This document shows, in pieces, positions 4,897 to 31,090 of a stretch of DNA of 35,311 nt. Numbering within the stretch: the first letter of the stretch is position 1; each line of letters starts with the position of its first letter. The translations under genes were made by a program, and so were the position numbers. The notes beneath the pieces are model-generated. The model worked only from the letters and a program-made list of their open reading frames with translations, was not told where the DNA came from and searched no databases. This stretch comes from a virus. The stretch is taken from positions 1 to 35,311 of IMG/VR virus record IMGVR_UViG_3300017934_000004; one strand, 5' to 3'.

Positions 4897-6156
4897 ATGC
4901 GATTCGTTTTTATTTCCGAGCGCACTTTCGAGCCGTGGGATTGGACGAATCCCGAGCTCGCCGGCATCGGCGGTTCGGAAACGTCACACATTGAAATGGC
5001 CCAACGCCTCGCGCGCCGCGGTCATGATGTCATGTCATACGCGCCGCTCGCGCTCGACGAACGCATGGGCATGGCTCGCGTTGCCGGCTACCAAATCCCC
5101 GCGGATAGCTTCACGGACCCTGCAGGCGTGGAGTGGTATCCGATCGAGCGGTTTCTCGAAGTCGTCGGCCGCGCCCATGTTCCCGGCTTAGTGTATGTAA
5201 TCTATCGCGCGCCGCACCTAGTCGATCTACTGCCGGCCGGCTCGATCGCCTGGCTAATCTGCCAGGATACCGATTACACGCGGGCCGACAACCTGCTCGA
5301 CCTCGATCGCGCGAGCCGGTTTACGCGCATCGTCACACTCTGCCAGGCGCAAGCGAAGGCCATGCGGCGCCGGCTCGATTCCCTGCCTGGCTCGAAAGGG
5401 CGCCGCGATAACATCGTAGTTTCCTCGAACGGCATCAAGCGCGAAACCATCGACGCGCTCGAAAATCTTTCAAGGGAAACGCCGTATGCACCTGAGCGGA
5501 ATGAATGCCGGCTCATTTATGCGAGCTCGCCGGATCGCGGCCTAGAAAATCTCTTGCCCATTTTTGAACGCGTGCGCGAAATCGTGCCCAAGGCCGAACT
5601 GCATGTTTGTTATGGCTTCAACAACATAGAGAAAGTCATCCAGCGCATCGACGATCGCGGCTTTAAAAACAATCCGGTCGCGCAAAACCGCGCGCACCTT
5701 CTCGCTGAAATGGAGCGGCTCGGCGTGCATCACTATGGCCGCCTGGGCCAAACCGAATTGCTCGCGCACTGGCTACGATCCGCCGTTTGGTGCCATCCCT
5801 CGAACTTCACTGAAACAAGCTGTATCACTTGCATGGACGCGCAGGCCTGCGGCGCCGTGCCGGTTACTAATCCAGTGTGGGCTATCGGCGAAAACGTCGA
5901 ACACGGCGTTTTTATTGAAGGCGACGTACGCACCGAAGCAATCCGCGCCCGCTATGTTTATGCGGTCGCCGAGCTGCTGTTAAACCCGCAAATGCAGCAG
6001 GAACACCGGGCCGAAATGATGCCCTGGGCTCGCGATCGTTTCAACTGGGAAAGATTCGTCGATCAGTGGGCTATGTGGGCCGCGGGTGACACAGAAAATT
6101 TAGCCTGGCCGGTGACCGAGCAGGAAATGGCCGATTATCCGGGGGTGACACTTTGA
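4897..6156 (+). CDS. Glycosyltransferase, GT-B fold (GT4/GT1-like)
   Basis: N-terminal GIGGSETS..LARRGHDV and C-terminal PSNFTETSCITCMDAQACGAVPV (E-x7-E-like) match the classical group-1 glycosyltransferase pattern. Confidence 0.8.
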   Translation: MRFVFISERTFEPWDWTNPELAGIGGSETSHIEMAQRLARRGHDVMSYAPLALDERMGMARVAGYQIPADSFTDPAGVEWYPIERFLEVVGRAHVPGLVYVIYRAPHLVDLLPAGSIAWLICQDTDYTRADNLLDLDRASRFTRIVTLCQAQAKAMRRRLDSLPGSKGRRDNIVVSSNGIKRETIDALENLSRETPYAPERNECRLIYASSPDRGLENLLPIFERVREIVPKAELHVCYGFNNIEKVIQRIDDRGFKNNPVAQNRAHLLAEMERLGVHHYGRLGQTELLAHWLRSAVWCHPSNFTETSCITCMDAQACGAVPVTNPVWAIGENVEHGVFIEGDVRTEAIRARYVYAVAELLLNPQMQQEHRAEMMPWARDRFNWERFVDQWAMWAAGDTENLAWPVTEQEMADYPGVTL

Positions 6157-6722
6157 CGCCGGTTAAGATGGCTTCGCAAGTCTATCGCGATCAGTTCGGC
6201 TTTCAGCGCGAGCACTCCAAGGGGCGAGTGTTAAACGTGGGCTCGAATACCGACGGCGCCAAACTCGCAGCCGATTTCGGCGCTATCAACGTCGATATGC
6301 GCATCGTCGATCACGTTTCTGGTTTTGTTTTGCCGGTGGCGGTCTTGGCCGATGCGCGCGCCCTACCGTTTGCTGGTGCCTTCGATACGGTGGTACTAGG
6401 TGAAATTCTCGAACACATGGAGCCTGCCGATGCCGTTCGCTCGTTACGCGAGGCAGTCGCGGCGATCCACGACAGCGGCCAGGTGGTTATCACCATGCCG
6501 CACGACGGTCGGCGCGAAACAGGAGAGATCGAAACGCCGCAGGGCGAAAAACAGTTTTATGCGCCAGGCATCTACGCGTATCACTACCGATCCATCAGCC
6601 GGCTAGAGCTGCTCGCGTGGATCCGCGAGGCAGGCTTGCGCGCCGAAGTGATCGCGCGAATTATTTACGTATGGGGTGAGCAGGGATCCGGAATCGTAGC
6701 GCGAAAGTGGTGCGAGGCATGA
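6153..6722 (+). CDS. Class I SAM-dependent methyltransferase
   Basis: Motif I VLNVGSNTDG, acidic loop, then ALPFAGAFDTVVLGEILEHM. TTGA overlap with the GT4 stop after a ggggg SD (alternative ATG at 6168). Confidence 0.75.
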   Translation: MTPVKMASQVYRDQFGFQREHSKGRVLNVGSNTDGAKLAADFGAINVDMRIVDHVSGFVLPVAVLADARALPFAGAFDTVVLGEILEHMEPADAVRSLREAVAAIHDSGQVVITMPHDGRRETGEIETPQGEKQFYAPGIYAYHYRSISRLELLAWIREAGLRAEVIARIIYVWGEQGSGIVARKWCEA

Positions 6723-7465
6723 TCCGGCACAAACTCATCGGCACAGTTGCATACATGGGCGGCACGATGGCCGTGCCGGAAGCCTTCGCCTGGTCCTGGG
6801 GGCAGCTCATGCGGCACACTGAGGCCGTAATTTGCGGGCCTCATGAGCATATCCACCCTACGCGCTCGACGGTGAGCCTGCACGATTGGGGCCGCAACCA
6901 AATCGTCAGCGACCTGCGCGGCGAGTGGCTTTTTATGCTCGACAACGATTTAGCTTTTGAGCCCGACCTATGCGCTCGCATGTTGGCGATCGCGAACCGC
7001 TATGAGCTCGACGTGGTGACCGGAATTTATTCGTACAAGTCGCCGCCTCACTATCCGGTGTTGTATCTCTACAACCATGAAAGCGGGCAAAACGAAATCG
7101 TCGCCGAATGGGAGCGGAGCTGCGAAGTCTTTCGCGTGGATTCTGCCGGTGCCGGCTGCCTGTTCGTTCGCCGCAGTGTGTTCGAGCGGATCGCACGCGA
7201 GCTCAAGGTTAACCCGTTCGATCGGATCGGGCGCAAGGGTGAAGATCATTCGTTTTTCGAGCGGCTGCGCGAGCTCGGAATCCCGGCCTGGTGCGCATGG
7301 AATATCGAAGTACAGCACCTAGCCGTTTTGGGACTTCAAACCTCGGTGCATTTCAAGCCGACGCGCGAGCCCGATCATTACTACGACGGGCAAGGTTTTG
7401 AAAGAGAAGGGGCTGGCGTAAAGGCGCCGCCACAATTGGGAGAAAAGGAGCAACTAGCACTATGA
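6719..7465 (+). CDS. Glycosyltransferase, GT-A fold (GT2-like)
   Basis: DxD-type motif FMLDNDLAFEPD. GAGCLFVRRSVFERI. GEDHSFFERL. ATGA overlap with the methyltransferase stop. Confidence 0.75.
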   Translation: MIRHKLIGTVAYMGGTMAVPEAFAWSWGQLMRHTEAVICGPHEHIHPTRSTVSLHDWGRNQIVSDLRGEWLFMLDNDLAFEPDLCARMLAIANRYELDVVTGIYSYKSPPHYPVLYLYNHESGQNEIVAEWERSCEVFRVDSAGAGCLFVRRSVFERIARELKVNPFDRIGRKGEDHSFFERLRELGIPAWCAWNIEVQHLAVLGLQTSVHFKPTREPDHYYDGQGFEREGAGVKAPPQLGEKEQLAL

Positions 7466-10813: not shown

Positions 10814-11188
10814 ATGTTCGAGGGACTCCGACAAGCCGATGCTGTGCTCGACGCCTGCGGGCGTGAAGTCGCGCCGCCGGGCTACAAGTTTGTGGACCTT
10901 CCTTATGTCATTCCACAGAAAGCGACGTTTACCAGTGGCGGCCCGACGCCGTTTCAAATCCGCGTGAAAAACAACGGGCTCACGGCGTTCCGCTGTAAGG
11001 GCATCGTGATCGATTGCATCTTACCGATCCGTATAAAGTGGCCGTCGGGCCGCTATCTCGCTCAGGGGCCGAGCTGGCCGGGCTCGGCTGGCTCGCCCAT
11101 CGGCGCCGGTGGAAACTTGATCGCGCTGAACGAGGAAGTCGAGATTGAAAGCGGCGCGAATATCGTCATCGAGGTTTCGCAGCCATGA
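10814..11188 (+). CDS. Truncated beta-sandwich domain protein (paralog of the N-terminal domain of 13942..14937, lacking the last strand)
   Basis: Roughly half of aligned residues are identical to 13942 aa 8-135 (VLDACGR..PPGY..VDLP, F-x-C-[KR]-G, IRI[KR]WP.GRYL.QGP, IALxxExEIExGAxIxIE). It ends at IEVSQP, before the IQFWGV strand. Confidence 0.65.
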   Translation: MFEGLRQADAVLDACGREVAPPGYKFVDLPYVIPQKATFTSGGPTPFQIRVKNNGLTAFRCKGIVIDCILPIRIKWPSGRYLAQGPSWPGSAGSPIGAGGNLIALNEEVEIESGANIVIEVSQP

Positions 11189-12315
11189 CCGAAATAGTAG
11201 ATTCCTTCGGCCTGTACGTGCTTACCTCGGTGAGCCCTGGCGCGAGCCAGAACTCGCTTACCACGTTTTGGAATGCGATCGGGCCTGGTGGTTTCACTAT
11301 GGGCGTGCAGGCTGGCGCCGGCGACCGTGGCAATCCGGCGCTTTATCTTCCGTTCGGCGCCGCGATTTGCAAAACAGTTTCGCATCAGCCGACATACACG
11401 CTCGGCCTCCGCGTTTCAATGAGCTGCGTCGCCGGCGTCGGCGGCGGATCTTCTTTTCTTCAGTTCTGCAACTGCGGTTTCGCGCTCTGCTCTCTCCGCG
11501 TGAACCCCGATGGCTCGATTCTGGTCTACGGAAACAATGTCGGTAGCACTGTGATTTTCACGGCGCCGGCGGGCACCTTGACGGCGGCGACGCAAACCTA
11601 TCTCGAATTGACGGCGACCGTCACGGCCGATGTGCTCGGCGACATGAGCGTAACGGCCGAGGCTTGGGTCAACTCAGTTTCGATCGGCAGCGGATCCGCT
11701 GCGCTCGGCCGGAACATCAGCACGCTCAAAAATGCGGCTGCGAATTTCAACCAGATTTTCATTTTTTCCGGCGTCGCGACGAACGGCCAGGCGTTTGTGT
11801 CCGACCTGTACCTAAACAATGGGCAAGGGCCGACGAACACCGGCCGGCTCTCGCTTTTGCCGCCGAATAATACGGCGCCGTTTGTGATCGTTGAGCCGCT
11901 TGTACCTAACGCTGACACATCGCCGCTCAATTGGACGCCGCTCGCGCCTGGCCCGCACTTCAGCGAGATCAACGAGGTTCCCGCCGACGGCGATGCGTCT
12001 TACAACTTCGCGGCGGCCGCGGCAGCCGGCACGATCGACAATTACCGCTGGCAGCCGATCTCTACTTTTGTAGGAACCGTGCAATCGGTGCAGCTCCGCT
12101 ATCAGGCGCGCTCGACCGCGGCCGGTCCGGCCGGCTATCGTTCGACTGTAGGAATCGGCGGGATCGAGGCGACGGGACAAAAAGCCGGGCTCTGTAGTTC
12201 CTATACTTACCAGGGCTCGCAGACATTCGACCTTGATCCGCGTACCGGGCTGCCCTGGGCACAGCCGAATTTTAACTTGAAACCGTTCGGCGTCGAAGTG
12301 GTGGCACTGCCATGA
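11185..12315 (+). CDS. Fibre/spike-like protein, LamG/concanavalin-like N-terminal domain (inferred)
   Basis: ATGA overlap at both ends. 376 aa, beta-rich, Gly/Asn/Thr-rich. Composition is typical of phage receptor-binding proteins. No direct motif proof. Confidence 0.5.
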   Translation: MTEIVDSFGLYVLTSVSPGASQNSLTTFWNAIGPGGFTMGVQAGAGDRGNPALYLPFGAAICKTVSHQPTYTLGLRVSMSCVAGVGGGSSFLQFCNCGFALCSLRVNPDGSILVYGNNVGSTVIFTAPAGTLTAATQTYLELTATVTADVLGDMSVTAEAWVNSVSIGSGSAALGRNISTLKNAAANFNQIFIFSGVATNGQAFVSDLYLNNGQGPTNTGRLSLLPPNNTAPFVIVEPLVPNADTSPLNWTPLAPGPHFSEINEVPADGDASYNFAAAAAAGTIDNYRWQPISTFVGTVQSVQLRYQARSTAAGPAGYRSTVGIGGIEATGQKAGLCSSYTYQGSQTFDLDPRTGLPWAQPNFNLKPFGVEVVALP

Positions 12316-13955
12316 GCCTGCTGTACGACGACGATTTCCAGAGCTATGCAGTCGGCGCATTCCCGCCTTATGGAAACCTGTTTAATATCGCGATTATTGC
12401 GCCGAAGATCGCAAACAGTGTCCCGCCTGGTGGCGTTTTTGGTGCCGCCAAGTACGTTAACATGGCCTCGCTGCCGAGCCTCATCTGGCCGACGACGACA
12501 CCTTCGACGGCACTACCGGCTTACTCTGAATTTTCCGTTTTCCAGCACGTGCTCATCCTGGGCGGCCAGGGGAGCGATGAACAGGGCGCGATTTTGCAGT
12601 TCAATTGCAACCTAAGCCCATTCGCAGGCATAAGCCTCGCTGCGCTGCGCGTTCTCTCCGATGGAACTCTCGCATTTACGGCACCGCAGAGCTCGGCCTT
12701 TTCTCCGAATCAGTTTGTTTCAAACGATTCGATTCTGGTCAATGCCTGGTACTCGATCCAGACCAACGTTCGGTTTTTCGCGGCCGGTGCATTCGTCGGC
12801 GTCGATGTCGAGGTAGCGATCAATAACAAGTCGGTTTTTGCCGGCAGTTTCGTGACCACTCAAACGGTGGCATCGCTGCCGGCCCTATTCGTAAACAATC
12901 TAATTTTCGGTGGACTCGGCGGCGGCTGCGCTTATGGCCGTATCACCGTTTCTGATACAATCCTCCCGATCGGCGCCGATCCCCATGCCGGCACACCCGA
13001 CGTGCGTGTGACGCAAGGCGCGATCGAGCTCATACTCGCGGCGTCTGGTGGCCTGCCGGTGCCAGTGTGCCCTATCGGTGGCGGTAACGCGACGGTCGGG
13101 CAACTCTACAACAAGACATTGACCGCAAGCGGCGGCATTCCGCCTTACACCTGGAATGTAACCGGCCTGCCGCCCGGCATCACATTCAATCCGGTAAGCG
13201 GGCAATTGCTCGGGATCCCGACCACGCCAGGCACGTTTACATACCTGGCGACGGTTACCGACCTGGCGACGGCGATGGGCTCGGTTAACTGCACGATTGT
13301 AGTCGTCGCCTCGCTCACCGTCGATATTCAGTTTTGGGGCGTGCTCCGTTTCCTGGTGCCGGTTGGATCTGGCGACGGCGACGCCGCTGAGTATTCGGCG
13401 ATCGGGCGCCAGGCATTACGCAGCCTGGCCGCGATCGCGCTTAGGGCGGCCTCAGTGCTGCTCGACCAGTTGGCGCGCACCCTGGCGCCGGCGAGCTCAG
13501 GGCGCCGCCTGCAGCTCGCCGCGTCGCCGGCGTCGGCCGTTAAAATTCCGATCCCTATGCCGGCCGCTCTGGAAACTGCAGCGGATAAGTGCAACTTGCG
13601 ACCGTTTGTGCAACCGGTTGCACAAACGACGCGAGAAACAAATGAGTTAGGTATATCCTTAACACTATCATCGCCTCGCATTCGCTTTTCTGGCGGTTTC
13701 AGTTTTTCTTGGCGGCCATTCGTGCAACCGGTTGCACAAACGACGCGAGAAACAAATGAGTTAGGTATTCCCTTAACACTATCATCGCCTCGCATTCGCT
13801 TTTCTGGCGGTTTCAGCTTTTCTTGGCGGCCATTCGTGCAACCGGTTGCACAAACGACGCTAGAAACAAACGGCTTAGGTATTTTACCCTGCCATTTGGC
13901 AGGGGCTCATAAAACGCCGACGTTTTTAGGGGAGGGTATCAGTGGCGCAGCTTAG
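12312..13955 (+). CDS. Fibre/spike-like protein with Ig-like (He_PIG-type) domain; 3' third reads through a 114-bp repeat array
   Basis: Residues 248-332 (13053..13307), containing GQLYNKTLTASGGIPPYTWNVTGLPPGITFNPVSGQLLGIPTTPGTFTY, match the putative Ig domain consensus. VDIQFWGVLRF at 13320..13352. No stop until 13953. GC3 falls from about 75 to about 38 percent inside the repeats, so the real C-terminus is uncertain. Confidence 0.55.
   Translation: MSLLYDDDFQSYAVGAFPPYGNLFNIAIIAPKIANSVPPGGVFGAAKYVNMASLPSLIWPTTTPSTALPAYSEFSVFQHVLILGGQGSDEQGAILQFNCNLSPFAGISLAALRVLSDGTLAFTAPQSSAFSPNQFVSNDSILVNAWYSIQTNVRFFAAGAFVGVDVEVAINNKSVFAGSFVTTQTVASLPALFVNNLIFGGLGGGCAYGRITVSDTILPIGADPHAGTPDVRVTQGAIELILAASGGLPVPVCPIGGGNATVGQLYNKTLTASGGIPPYTWNVTGLPPGITFNPVSGQLLGIPTTPGTFTYLATVTDLATAMGSVNCTIVVVASLTVDIQFWGVLRFLVPVGSGDGDAAEYSAIGRQALRSLAAIALRAASVLLDQLARTLAPASSGRRLQLAASPASAVKIPIPMPAALETAADKCNLRPFVQPVAQTTRETNELGISLTLSSPRIRFSGGFSFSWRPFVQPVAQTTRETNELGIPLTLSSPRIRFSGGFSFSWRPFVQPVAQTTLETNGLGILPCHLAGAHKTPTFLGEGISGAA
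13594..13885. repeat. Tandem repeat, 114-bp unit, about 2.6 copies
   Basis: Units 13608..13721 and 13722..13835 are 111/114 identical. A third partial unit starts at 13836. Each begins with the palindrome GTGCAACCGGTTGCAC. Confidence 0.9.
13608..13851. promoter_or_regulatory. Three copies of the 16-bp palindrome GTGCAACCGGTTGCAC, 114 bp apart
   Basis: Exact copies at 13608..13623, 13722..13737 and 13836..13851, upstream of the gene starting at 13942. Confidence 0.7.
13887..13926 (+). other. Two short hairpins between the repeat array and the 13942 start
   Basis: ccctgcc-attt-ggcaggg (13887..13904) and aaaacg-ccga-cgtttt (13911..13926), followed by a ggagg SD. Confidence 0.4.
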
Positions 13956-14937
13956 AATGCAACCGCTACGTGAGGCCGATATGGTGCTCGACGCGTGCGG
14001 CCGGCGGCAACCGCCGCCGGGTTACCGTTGGGTCGATTTACCGGCCGTGCTGCCGTTCAACTGGTCACAATTCGCGACCGTAGCGCCAGTGACGCCGGCG
14101 CAGGGACGCGTTGCCAACAATTCCAAGGCGAATTTTATTTGCCGCGGCGTGATGATTCAGAGCCCGGTCGGTGTGCGGATCCGCTGGCCTGGCGGCCGCT
14201 ATCTCTCGCAAGGGCCTACTTGGGTCGGCGTGCCGACCGTGCCGGGCAATCCGATCGCGACCGGCGGAAGTATGATCGCGCTCGACAGCGAGCAGGAAAT
14301 CGAGCGCGGCGCAAAAATCGCGATCGAAATGTCGGGCGGCACTGCCGGCCTGGTTAATATACAATTTTGGGGCGTGCGACGGTACTTACTTATGCAACCG
14401 AAAAACGGCGGCGCCGGCAGCTCGCCGGCGATGATTCCGGATCCGATCGACGAGCTGGAAGCACGGCCACGCTATCGGTGCGGGCCGCCTCAGAACATCA
14501 TGGCGCCCGAGTGGTACCTCGGAAACCAATGCACGCCGGAAACGCCGGCAGGTTACGAAGATGAGCCCTTTACATTCTTCTCGCCGCCGATCACCGTGCC
14601 CGTCGCAAAGCAGAATTTCAATAACGCCGTGATCGTGCCCGGCGGCGACGATGTGATTATCCGGCGGTACCGGGCAATCACCGATTACAGCGGGCTCGGT
14701 GGAGCCAGCTCGACGATTCCGGTATTCTCGCTGCGGCTGCCTAATGGCTATTCAGTCACCGGCGGCGATCTTGTTCCGACGCCGTTTCTGTTCTGGATCC
14801 CGATGTTTCCGACGATCCGCCTGCATCCCGGCGATCGGATCATACTCGACGTGGCCGACATGCAACCGGTCGGTACGGGCTCGGTGACGACGACGTTTGA
14901 ATTTGAGGGCGTGAAACGGAGGAAACTCATAGTATGA
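13942..14937 (+). CDS. Two-domain beta-sandwich protein (domain family F-x-[CL]-R-G .. F-x-G-x-[KR])
   Basis: GTG start 6 nt after ggagg. Domain 1 has FICRGV, IRIRWPGGRYL, AKIAIEM, VNIQFWGVRR. Domain 2 has VIIRRYRAI, FSLRLPNGY, LHPGDRIILDV, FEFEGVKRR. Confidence 0.7.
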   Translation: MAQLRMQPLREADMVLDACGRRQPPPGYRWVDLPAVLPFNWSQFATVAPVTPAQGRVANNSKANFICRGVMIQSPVGVRIRWPGGRYLSQGPTWVGVPTVPGNPIATGGSMIALDSEQEIERGAKIAIEMSGGTAGLVNIQFWGVRRYLLMQPKNGGAGSSPAMIPDPIDELEARPRYRCGPPQNIMAPEWYLGNQCTPETPAGYEDEPFTFFSPPITVPVAKQNFNNAVIVPGGDDVIIRRYRAITDYSGLGGASSTIPVFSLRLPNGYSVTGGDLVPTPFLFWIPMFPTIRLHPGDRIILDVADMQPVGTGSVTTTFEFEGVKRRKLIV

Positions 14938-18413: not shown

Positions 18414-19478
18414 ATGGCAATCGCTCCAGTAGCTCACGCGACCGCGGCGGGGCCGAATAGTGCGACGACACCAGCGCAGGACACGAGCACTGCGAATCTC
18501 ATAGTCCTTTCGGCCTTAACCGGGCCGCTCGCGGTGGGGCCGGCCGTGCAGGATAGTAACCATAACATCTGGACGCCGCTCAACGGAAACCGCGGCGGCG
18601 GATTTTTCTGGAATCAGTTTTTTTACTGCATTAATCCAGTTGTCGGGCCGGGCCACACGTTCACCATAAACGATGCCGGCGGTTTCGGCTCTATCCAGAT
18701 GACGGCCTGGAGTGGCGCCGCGGGAGGCTTCGACTTACAAGGGGCTGATTTTGGCGGATCGACAACGCAGCCACTCACTCCGAGCGTAAACGGATGCCTC
18801 GTTGTCGCTTCCTACGTCGGCAGCAATGACATAACAAGTGTCAATCTTCCCTTCGCTCTCAGCGATACCGAGCCGTTTACCGGCGGCGTCAATTACGCCT
18901 CGGGCACGGCTTTCGTCATCCAAACGACGGCCATCCTGGCGCAGTGTACGTTTAACGGAGTCGGCTCAGGCGGTCCGCTGTCAATTGCATCTTTCAAACC
19001 GTCGGCAACGGCTACCACGATCACGCCACCAGCAGGCGCACTCGCGACGGCCACATTTGCGCCACTGCTCACCGATACGATCACGCCAGGCGCCGCGGCT
19101 CTCGCGATCGCGACCTTTGCGCCAGCACTGATCGGCGGATTATTGGTGCCGACCGGTGCGCTCAGCCTGCAAGGTTTCGCGCCGGCTCTGACGCGCACAA
19201 TACCGGTGCCAGCGGGCGCGCTTACGCTCGCGACCTTCGCCCCGCTGCTGGGCGAGGTAGTCGGGCCAGTGCCGCCGGCTCATCTGGTGCTGACAACCTA
19301 TGCGCCGAAACTGGTGTTTTCATTTGGGCCGGCTGCCGGCAATCACGCCGCCGCCTGGTGGTGGAGCGGCGCGGCGGCGCGCATGATAAACGATGCCGGT
19401 TTTCAACTGCTGGTGGAGCCGCACTTACAGAATGAGAATTACACCGGCGAGCCGCAACCGGATGAGGGCGCGCCATGA
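18414..19478 (+). CDS. Fibre-like protein with five 20-aa tandem repeats
   Basis: 354 aa. Globular N-terminal domain, then 5 x (I/V)xPxAGALxLATFAPxLxxx. Confidence 0.65.
   Translation: MAIAPVAHATAAGPNSATTPAQDTSTANLIVLSALTGPLAVGPAVQDSNHNIWTPLNGNRGGGFFWNQFFYCINPVVGPGHTFTINDAGGFGSIQMTAWSGAAGGFDLQGADFGGSTTQPLTPSVNGCLVVASYVGSNDITSVNLPFALSDTEPFTGGVNYASGTAFVIQTTAILAQCTFNGVGSGGPLSIASFKPSATATTITPPAGALATATFAPLLTDTITPGAAALAIATFAPALIGGLLVPTGALSLQGFAPALTRTIPVPAGALTLATFAPLLGEVVGPVPPAHLVLTTYAPKLVFSFGPAAGNHAAAWWWSGAAARMINDAGFQLLVEPHLQNENYTGEPQPDEGAP
19020..19319 (+). repeat. Five in-frame 60-bp tandem repeats inside 18414..19478
   Basis: Units start at 19020, 19080, 19140, 19200 and 19260. The first two share atcacgcca and all share the ..gcgc.ct....c.....c.t..gcgcc core. 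Confidence 0.8.
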
Positions 19479-19506
19479 TTGCGAAGGCGATTTCGAGGGC
19501 TGTTTC

Positions 19507-20121
19507 ATGAACCTTGCCGCCATCAGGCCGCGCCGGCAAATGCCGCACCCGGTACTTTACGCGCCGCGGCGCCGCGGCGGCCTGGCCGGCTACGGCCTAG
19601 GCGTCGTGCAAGTGCTTGCACCGTCGCAAACGGCTACGATCGCGAGCACGATTCAGCAAGTCGAGGGCTACTATCCTGGCTCGCTCGCGTATCAGAATAA
19701 CAACCCTGGAAACCTGGTCTACGTCGGCCAGACAGGGGCCTCGCCCGGCGCCGGCGGGTTTGCGCAATTCCCGAGCTACTCGGCCGGCCTGCAGGCGCTC
19801 GACGATCAGATACAACTCTATGCCGCCCGCGGCATGACGATTTCTCAAATGATGAACACGTACGCGCCGGCCTCGGCCGGCAATAATCCGACAGCGTACG
19901 CGAACCAAATCGCCGGCGCGCTCGGTGTGGATCCATCAACCTCGCTGCTCGACCTGGCTGGGTTTTCGACCAGCTCGCCGGCGCCGCTGCCTGCCCTGCC
20001 CGATGTCTCGACGTGGGCGAGCTGGCTACCGGACTTTTCGAGTATCGACCCGTCGAGCCTGGCAATGATCGCCGGCGGCCTGCTGCTCGGAATTGTTGTG
20101 CTCAACGTCACCGGCGACTAG
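19507..20121 (+). CDS. Tail-anchored protein with NNNPGN motif domain (possible cell-wall-active or virion-associated protein)
   Basis: In-frame ATG at 19507. Basic leader ..RRRGGLAGYGLGV. YQNNNPGNLVY..GFAQFPSYSAGLQAL..YAP..NNPTAYANQIA. C-terminal helix LAMIAGGLLLGIVVL. Confidence 0.55.
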   Translation: MNLAAIRPRRQMPHPVLYAPRRRGGLAGYGLGVVQVLAPSQTATIASTIQQVEGYYPGSLAYQNNNPGNLVYVGQTGASPGAGGFAQFPSYSAGLQALDDQIQLYAARGMTISQMMNTYAPASAGNNPTAYANQIAGALGVDPSTSLLDLAGFSTSSPAPLPALPDVSTWASWLPDFSSIDPSSLAMIAGGLLLGIVVLNVTGD

Positions 20122-23239: not shown

Positions 23240-23746
23240 TCATCGCCTAGCCTTCAAATCCTCGATCGCCACCCGAGGGCGATCGCCGCGACCGTCGAGA
23301 ATCAGCTTGTCCAGTTCTTCCATGCCCGGAATGCTGCGGCTCGCAACGTCGGGCAACTGCTTGAGCACGCGCGAAGCCTGCGCCGGCCGGCGTCCTAGAG
23401 GTTTCAGCATCGGCTTACAGGTAAACGCGGCCGGATCCGCCTCGATTTGCATCTTGAGCTGGGTGATGAGCTGCGCTAGTTCCGGATCGGCCACGGCGGC
23501 GCGTTCTATGAACTGGCACGAATTGATAACCGTCGTGTGATGTCGGCCGATCGCACGGCCGACCTCCGACAAGGCCATGCCGGCGCCGACCAAGAGATAC
23601 GCGACTAAGTGCCGGGGGTGTGCGATATGGCGGGCATTGCTGCGACGCGTGAGGGTGCCCGGCACATAACCATACGCTTGCTCCACCAGGGCGAGGATCG
23701 CCGCTGCATTCGTTTTCTGCATTCGTGCCGGCGTCAAGAATTGCAT
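23240..23746 (-). CDS. DnaA domain IV-like helix-turn-helix DNA-binding protein
   Basis: RHIAHPRHLVAYLLVGAGMALSEVGRAIGRHHTTVINSCQFIE matches the DnaA C-terminal pattern (R..a.pRqiamYL.r.lt..Sl.eIG..fG.rdHtTV.ha...i). ATG at 23746 follows an agagg SD. No AAA+ domain is present. Confidence 0.6.
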   Translation of the reverse strand: MQFLTPARMQKTNAAAILALVEQAYGYVPGTLTRRSNARHIAHPRHLVAYLLVGAGMALSEVGRAIGRHHTTVINSCQFIERAAVADPELAQLITQLKMQIEADPAAFTCKPMLKPLGRRPAQASRVLKQLPDVASRSIPGMEELDKLILDGRGDRPRVAIEDLKARR

Positions 23747-23756
23747 AAGCGGGCCT

Positions 23757-24011
23757 CTAATCCGGATAGCGGGTGCGGGTCGGCGCCGCGGGACCATCGA
23801 CCTTGAACGTAGCGAAGTCGATAGCACGGTTCGAGTTCGACCATTCACAATTTGCCAGCTCAGGGTTTGGATCGCCGGCCATCTCCAAGGTGCAGGGCGC
23901 CTGGCGGCTGGTCACTAAGGCGCACTGCCTGCCTCCGGAAACATCATCGGGCAACGGCACAAGGATCCTCAGTAACTCATTCGCGCTTTTACCATAAAAC
24001 GGGCAAGGCAT
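23757..24011 (-). CDS. Hypothetical protein
   Basis: Strong SD aaggggga 5 nt upstream of the ATG at 24011. Confidence 0.55.
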   Translation of the reverse strand: MPCPFYGKSANELLRILVPLPDDVSGGRQCALVTSRQAPCTLEMAGDPNPELANCEWSNSNRAIDFATFKVDGPAAPTRTRYPD

Positions 24012-26004: not shown

Positions 26005-26251
26005 CGCTTCCCCCTGTATTGGCAGGCCGTTCGCACCGGCAGGGCATACGATCGCAGGCCGGGCAGTTCATGCGGCCGATATTCGCCGAGCTGCCGACAA
26101 TTCGGGCGATGCGCAAGGCGGCGAGGATCACGGCCAGCTCATCGCCATCCGCCTGCAAATCGACGACGCGGCGATCGGCTACGGCCGGCAGTGGATCGCC
26201 AAGGTGCCAGATGACTACACCATCGGTATGTGGATCCCCAAAATAGATCAC
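25991..26251 (-). CDS. Hypothetical protein
   Basis: GTG at 26251 in a GTGA overlap with the recombinase stop, preceded by an aggggggg SD. Confidence 0.5.
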   Translation of the reverse strand: MIYFGDPHTDGVVIWHLGDPLPAVADRRVVDLQADGDELAVILAALRIARIVGSSANIGRMNCPACDRMPCRCERPANTGGSDARR

Positions 26252-26850
26252 TTCCCCCCCTTATCCTCGGCCTCGGCCAAAGTGCGGCCGACGACGCTTT
26301 TACTGGACTTCAATTCAGTAGCGATCTCGCGCAGGCTATAGCCGGCATCTCGCAGCTCGCGCACGCGTATCCTGTCGAGCACTGCCGGCCGGCGGCCGCC
26401 GATGACGCCATTCGCCCTGGCGCGCGCCAGACCGGCCCTAACGCGGGCCTGCATCGTTAGGCGTTCCTGCTGCGCGATAAATGCCGCAATCGCGATGAGC
26501 AGCTCGCCGGCAGGGCCGGCAGTTCTGAAATGCTCCTCGTTCATGCTCCATAACTGCACGCCGGAACTGCGCAGCCTAGCAATGAGCTCGAACGCGCTCG
26601 CAGGCCCGCGGCGGGTGAGCCGGCTTAGATCGAACACCAGCACGGTATCAAAGTCGCGCCGGGCCGCGTCCCGCATCAAAGCCTCAAGGCCGGGCCGCGC
26701 GGAGCTCGCGCCAGTGATTTCATCGGTGTAGACTGCGGCGACTTTCCAACTCATCGCCGCGGCGTATTTCCGAAGGGCGCGGACCTGGCTACTGAGGTTC
26801 TGCTTTCCGTCCGACGTGCTGATTCGGGCATAGACGCCTGCGGTTTTCAT
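26248..26850 (-). CDS. Small serine recombinase (resolvase/invertase family)
   Basis: N-terminal GVYARISTSDG (catalytic Ser context). D..LVFDLSRLTR. C-terminal HTH GYSLREIATELKSSKSVV. 200 aa. Confidence 0.9.
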   Translation of the reverse strand: MKTAGVYARISTSDGKQNLSSQVRALRKYAAAMSWKVAAVYTDEITGASSARPGLEALMRDAARRDFDTVLVFDLSRLTRRGPASAFELIARLRSSGVQLWSMNEEHFRTAGPAGELLIAIAAFIAQQERLTMQARVRAGLARARANGVIGGRRPAVLDRIRVRELRDAGYSLREIATELKSSKSVVGRTLAEAEDKGGK

Positions 26851-27398: not shown

Positions 27399-27619
27399 AA
27401 AATCCTTTCTTTCCCCTCCCCGTACAATTCGGCATAGGCGGCGAAGCCGTAGCGGAATCCATCAAGAAAACACGCGGCCAGGCAACCTAGGATTATGCCG
27501 ACAAGCAGCAACGGGAAACCTAGCCATACTGTGATAACTCCAAGAATCACCTGACCCAGGTTTATTGGTTCGGGTGGCGGCACCGGAGATTTATGCTCGC
27601 TGTCCATGATGGTTTTCAT
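27395..27619 (-). CDS. Small two-helix membrane protein
   Basis: ATGA overlaps at both ends. VILGVITVWLGFPLLLVGIILGCLAACFL. Confidence 0.55.
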   Translation of the reverse strand: MKTIMDSEHKSPVPPPEPINLGQVILGVITVWLGFPLLLVGIILGCLAACFLDGFRYGFAAYAELYGEGKERIL

Positions 27620-27840
27620 ATTCGGGTTAGACCCTTGAGTATCCGCACAGCGCGCATTCCAACGATCCAGGCATGAACCGCGATGTATGCCTCACCGCTG
27701 CAATTTCGCCCGGCCTCGATCGAGTTAAGCACACGCGGCGTTATTCCAATCTCGCGGGCCGCATCGTGGCAACTAAGGCCGGCTGCCGCGCGCAGGCTGC
27801 GCACGATGCTGCAAAAATCTTGATAGTCGTTTCCGATCAC
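27616..27840 (-). CDS. XRE-family helix-turn-helix transcriptional regulator
   Basis: LRAAAGLSCHDAAREIGITPRVLNSIEAGRN matches the HTH_3 pattern. GTGA overlap with the upstream stop. Confidence 0.7.
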   Translation of the reverse strand: MIGNDYQDFCSIVRSLRAAAGLSCHDAAREIGITPRVLNSIEAGRNCSGEAYIAVHAWIVGMRAVRILKGLTRI

Positions 27841-28136
27841 GCACGACCCTTTCGCTCGGTTAGCTGGTGACTCGCAACTCTCACGCCGATCAGCTCGGCA
27901 GCCTCGAAAATTGTGTCGGCGTGGCCGGTTCCGACCAGCTCTTTTTTATGGTAAACGGCCCATGCAATCCGTTGCACACCGAGCACCCAGTAGCGAGCGA
28001 AAACAAACCGGAAACCGCGGCGGCTGCCTTTCCATTTTCCGGTTTTTGCCAAGCCGCGAGTGATGTCGCCGCGAGCTCGGGCAGTGAGGATTTCGGTAGC
28101 CGCAATCATACCGCTAGTGGCTAGAGTGTCCCACAA
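27837..28136 (-). CDS. Hypothetical protein, first gene of the leftward operon
   Basis: 99-aa ORF with a TTG start (alternative ATG at 28109). No SD seen. Confidence 0.45.
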   Translation of the reverse strand: MWDTLATSGMIAATEILTARARGDITRGLAKTGKWKGSRRGFRFVFARYWVLGVQRIAWAVYHKKELVGTGHADTIFEAAELIGVRVASHQLTERKGRA

Positions 28137-28180
28137 ACTCTAGTTTGGGTCAATTTTTTTTGGTTGAAAAAGTACCAAAT

Positions 28181-28243
28181 GTGCAACCGGTTGCACGGCG
28201 AGTTTGTGCAACCGGTTGCACGAAAACGCGCAACCGGTTGCAC
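28181..28243. promoter_or_regulatory. Three clustered copies of the palindrome (operator, iteron or res-like array)
   Basis: GTGCAACCGGTTGCAC at 28181..28196 and 28206..28221, and GCGCAACCGGTTGCAC at 28228..28243. Lies in the divergent region between 28136 (-) and 28564 (+). Confidence 0.75.
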
Positions 28244-28244
28244 G

Positions 28245-28324
28245 ACGTATCTCTATTACATTTAGAAGAATCTTTAGAAGAACTAACAGCAGCAGCTAAA
28301 GGTACTACTAGCGGGCTGCTGCTG
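28245..28324. other. AT-rich segment with 2 x TTTAGAAGAA, then a 10-bp stem-loop (origin-like unwinding region)
   Basis: tttagaagaa at 28261..28270 and 28273..28282. cagcagcagc (28287..28296) pairs with gctgctgctg (28315..28324). This is the most AT-rich patch I noticed in the window. Confidence 0.5.
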
Positions 28325-28445
28325 CTCGCGTTCGCCTGCTGTTCCCTCTTGCAAAATAAAACCTGCTATGCTTACGATTGACGGGTAAGCGCGCCAAAAA
28401 CCGCAACGCGGATTTGGTCACCGGTTCGGCCTTGGGTTTGGTTTC

Positions 28446-28514
28446 CTCAGAAAACTCCCGACCCTAGCCGAGCTGGTGACCGGTTCGCCAAACAGCGCGC
28501 GGGAGTTTTCTGAG
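28446..28514 (+). promoter_or_regulatory. 15-bp perfect inverted repeat in the Rep-gene leader
   Basis: ctcagaaaactcccg (28446..28460) pairs with cgggagttttctgag (28500..28514) around a 39-nt loop. The 3' arm contains gggag upstream of a 16-codon uORF (28517..28567) whose stop overlaps the Rep ATG. Confidence 0.6.
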
Positions 28515-28563
28515 ACATGAAAAGCTCGATCCGTTATCCACTCGCGTTCGGAGTCGCCCGGCA

Positions 28564-29637
28564 ATGAACGCACCCGCCCAACAAACCGGCCAATTTTTTT
28601 ACGTTCCAAACTCACTCACCGAAAACCAGATGTTTTTGACTCATGCCGAGCTGGCAATGGCCCTGATCGTGTTGAGGCGATCCCACAGCAACAAGGGCGG
28701 GGCGGTACCGGTGAGTGATGAAAACTGGAAAAACTGGACCGGCCTCAGTATTCGGCAAAAAAAATATGCTGTCGCCGGCCTTGAAAAAAAAGGCCTACGC
28801 ATCGAGGGCCGCGGCGATCGCGCGCGTTACGCCTGGCAGTTCGATATGTGGGAATCGTACGCGCGGCAAACGGCGATCGAGCAGCGCGCGAAAACCGAGG
28901 GCCGGAAACCCGCGCCAGTGCCGGCGAAAAAGGGCGCAATGGTACATCCGGAATGCGCTGCCGGCTGCGCGATGCTACAACAGACACCGGCGAAACTTGT
29001 GCTGCTACCGGCCGGCCAAATTGAACAGGCTTGGCCTGAAACCCTCAGTACGATCCGGCAAGCGTTCCCGCCGGTCACTGGCGCATTTCTGGCGCGCCTG
29101 GTCGGCGTAGTGAAAGCCTCGATCGGCACCGTAACCGATGCCGAGCTCGCGCACGCGGTCACCATCGCGTACAAACGGCAGCAGCGTAGCGAGGGCCTAT
29201 TTCTCGACACGGTGCCCGAGGCGCTCGCCGCGCTTCGGCGCGTGAAGGCAAAGCCGGTACTGCCGGCAGCCGGCGACGTGGATCCGGCCGCGATCGAGCA
29301 GCGCATCGGCGAAGTGCTCACGATTCTATCAGCCGACAACTGGGCCTCGGCCGCGCTCTGCGCCGATCTCGAAAAACTGCGCGATCGCGTGAAGTCTACC
29401 GAGCTGCAGCAGCTCGATGACGAAATGAACGCGCTCGAAAAGCGGATTATCAATGCGGCACATGATGCGATCGCCGAGCCACAACGCGAGAAAATCCGGC
29501 AGCGTGTCGCCGGCCAGATGAAATCCTACGCCGGCAAAATGTCGCCCGCGCAGCTCGACCAGCTCGCGCACACCATGCTAGAGCGCGAGCTCTTGCAGTA
29601 CTTCGACGTGCCGCGGCTCGGGGTCTTCTATGTGTGA
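28564..29637 (+). CDS. Putative replication initiator / winged-helix DNA-binding protein
   Basis: N-terminal FFYVPNSL..LTHAELAMALIVLRR..WTGLSIRQKKYAVAGLEKKGLRIEG resembles phage/plasmid replisome-organiser wHTH N-termini. Lies directly downstream of the iteron/AT-rich region. The function is inferred. Confidence 0.5.
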   Translation: MNAPAQQTGQFFYVPNSLTENQMFLTHAELAMALIVLRRSHSNKGGAVPVSDENWKNWTGLSIRQKKYAVAGLEKKGLRIEGRGDRARYAWQFDMWESYARQTAIEQRAKTEGRKPAPVPAKKGAMVHPECAAGCAMLQQTPAKLVLLPAGQIEQAWPETLSTIRQAFPPVTGAFLARLVGVVKASIGTVTDAELAHAVTIAYKRQQRSEGLFLDTVPEALAALRRVKAKPVLPAAGDVDPAAIEQRIGEVLTILSADNWASAALCADLEKLRDRVKSTELQQLDDEMNALEKRIINAAHDAIAEPQREKIRQRVAGQMKSYAGKMSPAQLDQLAHTMLERELLQYFDVPRLGVFYV

Positions 29638-30868: not shown

Positions 30869-30977
30869 CGGGATACCGCCAGCCAAATTAATTCATATAC
30901 AGCCATCGCCGCCAAGCACAGGAAAGCGATTCTCGGTTTTTCCATGTCCGATCGTACAGGGCCAATGTGCGCGCGCC

Positions 30978-31090
30978 AATAGAGCGCGAGTACCGTTTTA
31001 CGCTCGGGCCTTCGCCTTAGATCGGCCGGGCGCAACGTGTGCCTGCTAATAGATTGGCAGTACCGTTTTAGGCTCGGGCATTCGCCTTAC
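30978..31090. repeat. Two 43-bp imperfect direct repeats, 70-bp period
   Basis: 30978..31020 and 31048..31090 are 36/43 identical (aataga..agtaccgtttta.gctcgggc.ttcgcctta). Intergenic, just downstream of 31092..31598 (-). Confidence 0.8.

Follow-up and report, generated by a model that had tools for sequence, protein, structure and literature searches.

A palindromic repeat array read through by a viral surface-protein gene may represent a clade-specific set of cis-acting DNA modules

The DNA analysed here (the window) is a stretch of 35,311 nucleotides, positions 1 to 35,311 of the IMG/VR virus record IMGVR_UViG_3300017934_000004. On its plus strand, an open reading frame of 547 aa (12312..13955) encodes a variable surface (spike or fibre-like) protein followed, as written, by about 190 passenger codons. 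The product carries a Pfam He_PIG Ig-like domain at aa 257-331, and the homologue P0002 (L002, 370 aa) aligns to aa 1-331 only. A conserved C-terminal strand motif, TVDIQFWGVLRFLV, lies at aa 337-350 (13320..13361, plus strand). Between the motif and the repeat array is a GC-rich filler (13392..13593, plus strand, 68% GC), which is open in two forward frames and showed no similarity to the equivalent stretch of the relative L034 in nucleotide and six-frame comparisons. The array is located at the right border of a variable cassette, the left border of which is a 124-aa gene (10814..11188, plus strand). The next structural gene (13942..14937, plus strand) encodes a 331-aa protein modelled with two beta-sandwich (jelly-roll-like) domains, and the best match of the model among solved structures was the PRD1 coat protein. 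Since this neighbour models as jelly-roll-like with such a match, the label "fibre" for the surface protein is uncertain.

The strand motif TVDIQFWGVLRFLV also closes unrelated variable proteins of L034, L052, L053, L054, and L060. In L052, L053, and L060, which have no array, the stop codon is found about 10 aa past the motif, in the form (V/I)x(V/I)xF(C/W)GV.R(Y/F), and the next gene follows immediately. The motif matches aa 138-150 of the 331-aa protein, which form the last strand of its N-terminal beta-sandwich in an AlphaFold2 (AF2) model. The product of the 124-aa gene is a paralogue of aa 6-131 of the same protein, without that last strand. We considered and rejected the idea that insertion of the cassette had split a 331-like gene, of which the 124-aa gene and the motif would be the halves; the 124-aa gene is not a pseudogene fragment, because it is independently conserved, with different downstream genes, in L033, L034, and L052-L054. 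On these alignments, the strand motif apparently marks the ancestral, functional end of the surface protein.

Tandem Repeats Finder reported a single array at 13608-13883, with a period of 114, 2.4 copies, 95% matches, and a score of 503. In the register that starts at the palindrome at 13608, units 1 and 2 are identical at 111/114 positions, which is the figure given in the original prediction; starting from 13598 or 13594 gives 108/114 or 105/114. A perfect 16-bp palindrome, GTGCAACCGGTTGCAC, is present in every unit, as box 1 (13608..13623, with the symmetry extending to 26 bp, 13603-13628), box 2 (13722..13737), and box 3 (13836..13851). With up to 3 mismatches allowed, the window contains 8 occurrences of the palindrome where 0.28 would be expected, a count that was not reached in any of 100 shuffled sequences. 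Unit 1 (13598..13711) and unit 2 (13712..13825), both on the plus strand, are of an X-type, unit 1 consisting of the palindromic box, an A-rich flank, and a weak hairpin. Unit 3 (13826..13941, plus strand) is of a Y-type, in which the box and A-rich flank are followed by a GC hairpin (CCCTGCC-ATTT-GGCAGGG, 13887..13904, plus strand) and then by the Shine-Dalgarno sequence (SD) of the next gene. It is homologous to the gene-proximal unit of L057 (82% nucleotide identity), and at the position of its hairpin L034 has CCCCC-ATA-GGGGG.

Conservation among units is seen in the nucleotides: the palindrome does not vary and an adjoining flank, GC.RSAA..AAA.G, is kept, whereas the sequence between boxes cannot be aligned between X-type and Y-type units. 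The small second hairpin of each unit differs in sequence, and its pairing is maintained. Neighbouring array boxes are separated by only 98-122 bp, and their spacings of 114 and 138 bp correspond to 10.9 and 13.1 helical turns, so that they are nearly in phase. Spacing of this order is unlike that of a tight origin nucleoprotein complex, an observation that counts against an origin reading.

The original prediction was that the surface-protein gene reads through this palindrome-bearing array in frame, and its description of the sequence was borne out. The 547-aa frame is uninterrupted across the array and ends at a TAG (13953-13955), 11 nt past position 13942, where the next gene starts with GTG. 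GC content at third codon positions (GC3) is 0.70-0.90 in this frame until about 13570 and falls to 0.33-0.47 within the array, against about 0.7 in genes. The opposite-strand frame (13328..13795) is likewise present; it shares third codon positions with the plus frame, and its equivalent in L034 is broken, each minus frame there having 2-6 stops. GC3 was therefore rejected as proof of coding in 13390-13593, a stretch that is also unconserved in any frame.

The array has no stop codon in the frame of the upstream gene and 7 and 3 stops in the other two forward frames. By dinucleotide shuffling, the probability of an open frame by chance was 0.015 with the array taken whole, 0.066 with the duplicated part left out, and 0.029 for the array of L034; these statistics are moderate, and the lineages share ancestry and are not independent. 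The frame reading GTG CAA CCG GTT GCA through the palindrome is stop-free in both the window and L034, where the other forward frames have 2-7 stops, and it is also open in the single available units of L057 and L059. The region of the ancestral stop/start junction (13929..13944, plus strand) contains the SD GGGGAGGG and the GTG with which the next gene begins. Its layout is similar in L034, L059, L057, and L060: stop and start overlap as GTGA in L034 and as ATGA in L059, and the stop lies 11 nt past the start in the window and L057. The final codons, EGISGAA*, resemble the ancestral tail EEGSAA* of L060.

The possibility that the array is a functional C-terminal peptide module of variable copy number, such as a spacer or an anchoring repeat, was weighed against the pattern of substitution. 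The repeat is translated as written, the frame is open through all copies and in four lineages, and unit lengths are multiples of three, as such a module would require. However, differences among homologous units of the window, L034, L057, and L059 fall 33/30/36 at codon positions 1/2/3, with no third-position excess. Real genes compared between the window and L034 gave 73/58/140, 56/41/153, 32/21/67, and 24/23/109; the contrast between the flanking genes (about 27/21/52% by codon position) and the units has a chi-square of about 10.5 with 2 degrees of freedom. Codon composition in the array is not gene-like, the repeat is missing from homologues, relatives without an array terminate 10 aa past the strand motif, the sequence between boxes is unalignable, and the same 16-mer recurs in a non-coding control region. 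The peptide module is thus very improbable. Judged by these sequence comparisons, the array peptide shows no constraint at the amino-acid level, and the array is not a real protein repeat but is translated as passenger sequence. The central judgement of the original prediction, that the array resembles a binding-site element rather than coding sequence and is nevertheless translated, is therefore upheld. Its proposal that the real gene ends earlier in relatives also agrees with what we found, both in the stops about 10 residues past the motif and in the 370-aa homologue of L002. The variable C-terminal extension that it offered holds in the trivial sense that residues are appended, and fails as a module under amino-acid-level constraint.

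The distribution of the array was examined among relatives, and copy number varied in their assemblies, as the original prediction had proposed to check. The closest relative, L001 (ENA ERZ27257556 k141_648302), is 99.95% identical over the 21.5 kb compared. Its array is exactly one 114-bp unit (38 aa) shorter, which gives an ORF of 509 aa; the difference rests on assemblies, in which an assembly effect is possible. The single unit of L001 combines, in mosaic fashion, the variants of units 1 and 2 of the window, which could reflect gene conversion or an assembly mixture of population variants. When relatives are graded by identity of the next gene, all those at 71% or above have the array and those at 64% or below lack it. 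Units lie directly upstream of the 331-like gene in L057 (84%), L059 (73%), and L034 and L058 (71%), the contigs of L057, L058, and L059 ending inside the array; no array was found in L060, in L052-L054 (about 60%), or in loci at 30-50% identity. Across relatives, the array comprises 1.4 or 2.4 units of 114 bp or 2 units of 138 bp. The open frame and a unit length that is a multiple of three recur in a relative with an unrelated upstream gene. Searches of INPHARED revealed no DNA or protein similarity, and a full-text literature search for the 16-mer found no paper. Viral contigs scanned for the 16-mer gave single, presumably chance, matches except in one true relative.

The palindrome also occurs in the early region, where a cluster of three boxes (28181..28243) starts at 28181, 28206, and 28228, the last with one mismatch, at spacings of 25 and 22 bp. 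The cluster lies within the most AT-rich divergent control region, 320 bp upstream of a gene for a candidate O-like replication initiator (28564..29637, plus strand, 357 aa), and has on its flanks the two 40-nt windows with the lowest GC in the genome (0.25 and 0.28); the flanks of the array boxes, at 33-35% GC, are less AT-rich. Repeated sites beside a candidate initiator gene and an adjacent AT-rich region are thus both found here, as at an origin; GC skew was uninformative on the origin. The early cluster is kept in L017 and L062, in which only site 3 is perfect, sites 1 and 2 being degenerate, and occurs in L063 as the variant GCGCAATCGGTTGCGC. The distance from the early cluster to the array is 14.4 kb on the 35.2-kb circle.

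Several neighbouring genes were considered as sources of a protein that binds the box. The O-like gene adjoins the early cluster in all relatives examined. Aa 11-131 of its product match PHROG 678, "replication initiation O-like", weakly (E = 2.6e-4), 1 of 11 family members matches Pfam Phage_rep_O, also weakly (E = 0.0099), and searches of PDB and NCBIfam gave no support. On this genomic context, the O-like protein is most likely the best candidate binder. A small conserved protein of 90-99 aa, encoded by the first gene of the leftward operon (27837..28136, minus strand), is an alternative candidate. A single-sequence AF2 model of it has an alpha-beta4-alpha topology, with no recognisable DNA-binding fold and no significant Foldseek match (best E = 0.03). 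The only clear helix-turn-helix gene near the cluster, an XRE gene (27616..27840), was rejected, as an unrelated gene replaces it in L017 and the identical box is retained there. A resolvase was considered unlikely as the binder from the site geometry. Conserved promoter candidates, recognised by eye, are sigma-70-like and comprise P_L (TTGAnn-N14-TGG-GACACT), P_R, and a late promoter. By eye, the early cluster lies upstream of both predicted divergent promoters and overlaps neither, and a promoter scan gave no promoter across the boxes.

Given that the same palindrome occurs at the early control region, the array would provide the protein bound at that region with another set of sites, far from the first. 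We lean towards the explanation that the array consists of clade-specific cis-acting DNA modules, the frame of which is kept open for the passage of ribosomes. Each module would comprise the 16-bp palindrome, about 30 nt of conserved A-rich flank, and a small hairpin; insertion of the modules would have taken place in the final codons of the gene for the variable surface protein, immediately before the next structural gene. The array sites would be of high affinity and would be bound by the protein of the early cluster, most likely the O-like replication initiator, so that the array may act like oriR of phage SPP1, as a secondary origin, a fork-arrest site, or a site for initiator titration or looping. 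The ORF would read through the array because the insertion took place upstream of the ancestral stop, which abuts the start of the next gene. Only in-frame, stop-free versions would let ribosomes reach this junction and preserve translational coupling, and read-through would avoid leaving an untranslated stretch of 350-550 nt exposed to Rho. Such frame-keeping would explain why units measure 114 or 138 bp (38 or 46 codons) and why the same frame is open in four lineages, and the tail of about 190 residues would therefore be translated passenger sequence. Coupling may not be strictly required, because the next gene has its own SD. That the frame is always open to the ancestral junction suggests that what is selected is the passage of ribosomes rather than the peptide. 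A more specific version is tentative and, in our estimate, rather improbable as a whole: an oriR-like second locus of initiator sites placed within the frame of a host-recognition gene, in which copy number tunes replication and translatability itself is selected.

The most serious competitor is that the array is a distal operator for a repressor or an activator, for instance the conserved 90-99-aa protein, acting through an internal promoter in each unit, as a roadblock within the 24-kb rightward operon, or by looping to the early operators. The three early sites at 25 and 22 bp spacing resemble a lambda-type tripartite operator, with site strength graded in L017 and L062; the gene immediately downstream of the array has an SD of its own and a 5' hairpin, and the 114/138-bp spacings of the array are near helical phase. 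Against this, no unit contains a sigma-70-like promoter, either in a tool scan or in eight units inspected by eye, whereas the recognisable promoters of the genome are sigma-70-like. Palindromic sites of lambda-type operators overlap the cores of early promoters, and here the early cluster lies outside both predicted divergent promoters. The XRE gene is missing from L017, which retains the identical box, and the 90-aa protein has no recognisable DNA-binding fold. An operator array is consequently possible, but we consider it doubtful. Other promoters within the units were also rejected: a sigma-54 type is off by one nucleotide in spacing, and Bacteroidetes-type motifs do not fit. Late promoters of the P2 Ogr/Delta type each have a TGT-N12-ACA dyad upstream; here only box 1 fits this pattern, and its 5 matches in the window against 2.8 expected are accounted for by chance. 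The ribosome-transit-sensitive operator of the original prediction is unsupported, because ribosomes work on RNA and the early spacer, in which boxes of identical sequence occur, is predicted to be untranscribed.

That same spacer bears on action at the RNA level, in which 11-bp mRNA hairpins would serve as signals for processing, stability, or translational pausing. Folding of the array RNA is more stable than that of shuffled sequence (z = -4.5), and each unit has a second small hairpin with its pairing kept despite sequence change. A good part of the excess stability is pairing between repeated palindromes, expected of any such array, however, and the identical boxes between the predicted divergent promoters would not be transcribed. 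Rfam and tRNA scans found nothing, and the hairpins lack a U-tract, so that no intrinsic terminator (GC hairpin plus U-tract) was seen. We regard an RNA signal as having little to recommend it. Equally hard to credit is a set of crossover or accessory sites for the resolvase-type serine recombinase encoded at 26248..26850, by which cassettes would be inverted or exchanged. In the tail-fibre systems Gin, Cin, and Min, an ORF likewise reads through the recombination site; moreover, the resolvase-family gene is present and conserved, the array lies at the right border of the variable cassette, and unit 1 has a 26-bp palindrome. But res, hix, and gix sites are 24-34 bp long, with recognition at the outer ends and an AT-rich centre of 2 bp, whereas conservation here does not extend beyond the inner 16 bp, which have the GC-rich CCGG at their centre. 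Alternative coding segments in inverted orientation were not found, the minus frames carry stops in L034, cassettes are equally variable in relatives without an array, and the recombinase gene is 12.4 kb from the array.

The reading as cis-acting modules was compared with known systems, the closest analogues of which would be the lambdoid iterons inside gene O and oriR of SPP1. In lambdoid phages, iterons lie within gene O, and the difference between 4 (lambda) and 6 (Stx phages) adds 13 residues to O (PMC7466680). Both there and here, an array of dyad-symmetric sites is read through in frame and copy number adds residues. The lambdoid sites, however, are placed centrally within the gene of the initiator itself, at intervals of about 20 bp, and assemble into a single compact complex. 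In the window, the array that is translated has boxes 114-138 bp apart and sits at the end of an unrelated structural gene, at a distance of 14.4 kb from the candidate initiator gene, and the compact cluster beside the latter is non-coding.

In SPP1, gp38 is described as binding oriL, in gene 38, and oriR, which interrupts the late genes; the two are about 13 kb apart on the circularised genome, and oriR, when bound, is proposed to stall forks and to set off the change to concatemer synthesis (PMC6316719; PMC3485210). The window shares with SPP1 two separate clusters of sites, putative here, one at a replication gene and one among late structural genes, and a distant cluster with repeats and an AT-rich stretch. 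Unlike the array, oriR is intergenic and consists of direct repeats, whereas here palindromes of variable copy number lie inside an ORF.

The arrangement also recalls OR and OL of lambda, in that three palindromes of 16-17 bp, 22-25 bp apart, lie between divergent early units and a second set lies kilobases away. It differs in that no conserved CI/Cro-type repressor adjoins the sites, the predicted promoters are clear of them, and the distal set is spread at 114-138 bp inside the late structural operon. Stoperators of cluster A mycobacteriophages are described as repressor sites in transcribed late regions that act on elongating RNA polymerase (PMC9283540). Candidate binding sites within a late region are common to both, but stoperators are numerous, genome-wide, and asymmetric in recognition sequence (PMC9283540), whereas the sites here are palindromic and confined to one late locus and the early cluster.

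These findings bear on how such genomes are read. Gene callers attribute to the surface protein 120 residues that stem from the array, examples being P0001 and the 652-aa ORF of L034; placing the functional C-terminus at the strand motif matters for structural and host-range work on this virus family. The family consists of uncultured soil-metagenome viruses with circular genomes of about 35 kb, which may be non-tailed with a PRD1-like coat protein. In this uncharacterised, widespread group, the sequences point to a likely origin and control region and to the box recognised there. If the proposed explanation is true, the array would be a natural array of cis-acting sites selected to be stop-free and in frame for ribosome traffic and not for its peptide. 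On the more specific version with an oriR-like second locus, it would be a DNA element selected at once for protein binding and for the absence of stop codons, not for encoded content.

The only strong tandem array that Tandem Repeats Finder detected in the window lies at 13608-13883 (period 114, 2.4 copies, 95% matches). Each unit opens with the perfect 16-bp palindrome GTGCAACCGGTTGCAC, at 13608, 13722 and 13836, the first copy of this box being a perfect 26-bp palindrome, and with the register set at the palindrome units 1 and 2 are identical at 111 of 114 positions. The ORF 12312..13955 (547 aa) has no stop through the entire array and ends at TAG 13953-13955, 11 nt past the GTG start at 13942 of the next structural gene (13942..14937, 331 aa); GGGGAGGG, the Shine-Dalgarno (SD) ribosome-binding site of that gene, stands just before it. 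GC3 in this frame is 0.70-0.90 to ~13570 and 0.33-0.47 within the array. An opposite-strand ORF, 13328..13795, is also present; it shares third codon positions with the plus frame, GC3 upstream of the array being strand-blind, and it is not retained in the relative L034, with 2-6 stops per minus frame. The original prediction had described the near-identical 114-bp units, the read-through into the next gene, the fall in GC3 and the opposite-strand ORF, and all of its factual statements hold.

Comparison with related genomes revealed the anticipated variation in copy number. L001, which matches the window at 99.95% identity across 21.5 kb, is short by exactly one 114-bp unit, giving a 509-aa ORF, and L034 has two units, 138 bp apart. 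Two kinds of unit were distinguished, X-type (...CCTTAACA...TCGCC hairpin) and Y-type (TTTACCC, then a GC hairpin), either of which occurs as the gene-proximal unit; the palindrome and its A-rich right flank, ~30 nt, are common to all. The lone X-type unit of L001 is a mosaic of the variants of window units 1 and 2 and so did not arise by simply collapsing both; it may stem from gene conversion or from population variants mixed in assembly.

The gene carrying the array belongs to a variable cassette. Across the family, the order of the 124-aa gene (10814..11188 in the window), variable gene(s) and the 331-like gene is kept, and the variable genes are mutually unrelated (376 + 547 aa in the window, 652 aa in L034, 614 + 144 aa in L052, 449 aa in L053 and 458 aa in L054). 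The motif (V/I)x(V/I)xF(C/W)GV.R(Y/F)(L/M) appears in every last variable protein, at aa 337-350 (13320-13361) in the window. In relatives whose 331-like protein is at most 64% identical, the variable protein ends ~10 residues past the motif (L052, L053, L060) or has an additional ~55-residue tail beyond it (L054), and the next gene begins immediately, often with a stop/start overlap such as the GTGA of L060. The sole homologue found for the N-terminal 331 residues, apart from the genome's near-identical copy, is P0002 of L002 (37% identity), a 370-aa protein ending shortly past a He_PIG Ig-like domain. The suspicion that the real gene ends earlier in relatives was thus borne out, and the final ~190 codons of the window ORF, a GC-rich filler (13392-13593) followed by the array, are hence a clade-specific addition. 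The window ORF closes with EGISGAA (stop), which resembles the EEGSAA (stop) of the ancestral tail in L060; the insertion therefore sits within the former C-terminal tail and upstream of the former stop/start junction. In every relative of at least 71% identity (L057, 84%; L059, 73%; L034 and L058, 71%), an array with the identical palindrome immediately precedes the 331-like gene, and no array was found in the relatives examined at 64% identity or less. Three of these contigs (L057, L058 and L059) end within the array; assemblers break contigs at repeats.

The filler shows no similarity to the L034 filler in any frame. In L034, a small ORF at 12380-12553, with its own SD (GGAGGG) and in a frame different from that of the 652-aa ORF, encodes a membrane-helix peptide (MLRLTLASLIGLVSLGGLAVMVV...) and reads through the first palindrome; at ~1990-2129 of L054 a similar peptide forms an in-frame tail of the variable protein, with an SD before it. 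The window filler could be what is left of such a gene after decay.

The window carries a terminal direct repeat of 67 bp and is therefore a complete genome of ~35.2 kb, either circular or terminally redundant; it is one of a large family of metagenome contigs 32-37 kb long. It shows no similarity to deposited phages in either DNA or capsid protein, and Pfam or PHROG matches are very few. A single long rightward operon runs from ~33870 round to ~23100, and a leftward early operon (28136 to ~23240) includes a resolvase-type serine recombinase. In the AF2 model (pLDDT 78), the 331-aa protein has two beta-sandwich domains, the motif LVNIQFWGVRRYLL being the final strand of the N-terminal one. The 124-aa protein is a paralogue of this domain that ends just short of the motif strand, and the strand motif is found at or near the C-terminus of all the unrelated variable proteins (window; L034 10448-12774; L052-L054), suggesting that the variable protein's C-terminal strand may complete the 124-aa fold in trans and so anchor a host-recognition protein. 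Among solved structures, the best matches to the model of the 331-aa protein were the double-jelly-roll major coat protein P3 of PRD1 and PR772 (E ~1e-4, probability 0.96-0.99, TM-score only 0.23); a viral structure library gave mixed generic beta-sandwich matches, the 15th being a tectivirus coat protein. The ORFs scanned yielded no terminase, portal or tail family. The genome may come from a PRD1-like virus without a tail; "fibre" would then denote a vertex spike. The long structural operon also carries two glycosyltransferases and a methyltransferase (4897-7465), kept in relatives and an unusual cargo among virion genes. A second, intergenic tandem repeat at 30950-31089 comprises two 70-nt units, 77% identical, which differ in the sequence of their GC hairpin and share the tail AGTACCGTTTTA(C/G)GCTCGGGC...TTCGCCTTA; it has no Rfam or tRNA match.

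The spacer that separates the leftward early genes from the rightward ones holds three more copies of the box, at 28181, at 28206 and, with one mismatch, at 28228, spaced 25 and 22 bp. If up to 3 mismatches are allowed, the window has 8 matches, versus 0.28 expected by chance. This early cluster is flanked by the genome's two most AT-rich 40-nt windows. The three-site layout is kept in L017, where two sites are degenerate, in L062, and in L063 (O-like protein 45% identical) with the variant box GCGCAATCGGTTGCGC. In alignments read by eye, a candidate leftward promoter (TTGAnn-N14-TGG-GACACT, 28154-28126) and a candidate rightward promoter (TTGCAA-N18-TACGAT, ~28351-28386) are conserved. The cluster lies between these predicted divergent promoters, upstream of both, and hence would be untranscribed, which argues that the palindrome is a putative DNA site for a genome-encoded protein. 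In the array, perfect boxes identical to these form a second locus, distant from the first and variable in copy number, and we infer that it binds the same protein.

Several further blocks of the early control region are conserved between window 28100-28570, L017 3800-4270, L061, L062 and L063. An inverted repeat, CTAGAGT...ACTCTAG, surrounds TGGGACAC at the leftward gene start; the 20-nt block GACGTATCTCTATTACATTT abuts box 3, without any change in L017 and L061 and with a single base difference in L062; a CAGCAGC...GCTGCTG hairpin is conserved; and the leader of the O-like gene, a rightward early gene (28564..29637), forms a long hairpin, CTCAGAAAACTCC...GGAGTTTTCTGAG, with compensatory changes. 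At ~28544, TTATCCAC agrees at 8/9 positions with the DnaA box consensus, and it is not conserved in these alignments. Two near-matches to the box, each with 3 mismatches, were found at 19606-19621 (GTGCAAGTGCTTGCAC, within ORF 19393..20121) and at 27962-27977 (ATGCAATCCGTTGCAC, within the 99-aa gene, 220 bp off the cluster); the latter is not conserved in L017, and both could be weak auxiliary sites or chance.

Given that the array is open as written, it could be a functional peptide repeat, but this is contradicted by the pattern of substitution. Differences between homologous units of four lineages fall 33/30/36 at codon positions 1/2/3, whereas those in real genes of the window and L034 fall 73/58/140, 56/41/153, 32/21/67 and 24/23/109, and the amino-acid identity of the array peptide simply follows nucleotide identity. 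The array peptide is thus free of amino-acid-level constraint, and it is the DNA that is constrained. An RNA element is likewise unlikely; the excess folding energy (z = -4.5) is expected of any palindrome array, no Rfam family matched, and no U-tract follows any array hairpin. Nor is the array's existence likely to be an assembly artefact, the array being present in five independent assemblies, although its exact copy number is possibly artefactual.

As for the protein bound, the O-like gene adjoins the early cluster in all relatives examined, and a 90-99-aa protein gene, with no DNA-binding fold detected in its product, is likewise conserved beside it. The match of the O-like protein to lambda O-type initiators is weak (PHROG 678, E = 2.6e-4), as is a Pfam Phage_rep_O match in one of 11 relatives (E = 0.0099). 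The sites bound by O-type proteins are dyad-symmetric and lie in tightly spaced arrays next to AT-rich DNA. We tentatively favour this candidate initiator, at slightly short of an even chance, because no other conserved neighbour resembles a DNA-binding family at all, because O-type sites have this character, because the early cluster lies between and not over the predicted promoters, and because no promoter was detectable in the array units. The main rival, a transcription regulator for which the array would supply distal operators acting by looping, as a roadblock or at activator-dependent promoters, appears distinctly less probable. Recombinase sites, and the resolvase as binder, are unlikely: conservation is confined to the inner 16 bp with a CCGG centre, whereas res, hix and gix sites span 24-34 bp with recognition at the outer ends and AT-rich centres, and the cassettes are just as variable in relatives without the array. 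The XRE helix-turn-helix (HTH) protein encoded nearby (27616..27840) was rejected as binder, L017 having an unrelated gene there and keeping the identical box. Elsewhere, a 202-aa protein (23240-23848) contains a DnaA C-terminal (domain IV) DNA-binding domain (Pfam E = 1.5e-11; TIGR00362 E = 5.6e-11) and is apparently conserved (L011, ~42% identity by tblastx; an annotated Bac_DnaA_C gene in L001).

Distal copies of operators or initiator sites, and translated arrays of binding sites, are already known. Two close systems are documented. One is that of lambdoid phages, where the iterons lie inside gene O and are likewise translated in frame, 6 iterons instead of 4 adding 13 residues (PMC7466680). 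The other is SPP1, whose gp38 binds both oriL, within gene 38, and oriR, ~13 kb off in a stretch interrupting the late genes; oriR, once bound, is proposed to stall forks and trigger the switch to concatemer synthesis (PMC6316719, PMC3485210). The array and early cluster here are 14.4 kb apart on a 35.2-kb circle. Three features are unusual here: the array stands inserted in the tail of a structural gene that is unrelated and evolves fast, its frame is kept across a swap of that gene, and its copy number and unit length change by whole codons.

The frame GTG CAA CCG GTT GCA has 0 stops in the window and L034 arrays, versus 7 and 3 in the other forward frames of the window and 7 and 2 in those of L034. 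It is open too in the single available units of L057 and L059, and terminates at or beside the next gene's start in 4/4 lineages. Both unit lengths, 114 and 138 bp, are divisible by three. In dinucleotide shuffles, the frame stayed open with P = 0.015 when the window array was taken whole, 0.066 when only its non-duplicated part was used and 0.029 for the L034 array; because the lineages have a common ancestry and are not independent, the support for selection of an open frame is suggestive, not decisive. With moderate confidence, we propose that in-frame, stop-free arrays are favoured for keeping ribosomes moving to the stop/start junction, a passage that would preserve translational coupling and would avoid leaving a long untranslated stretch open to Rho.
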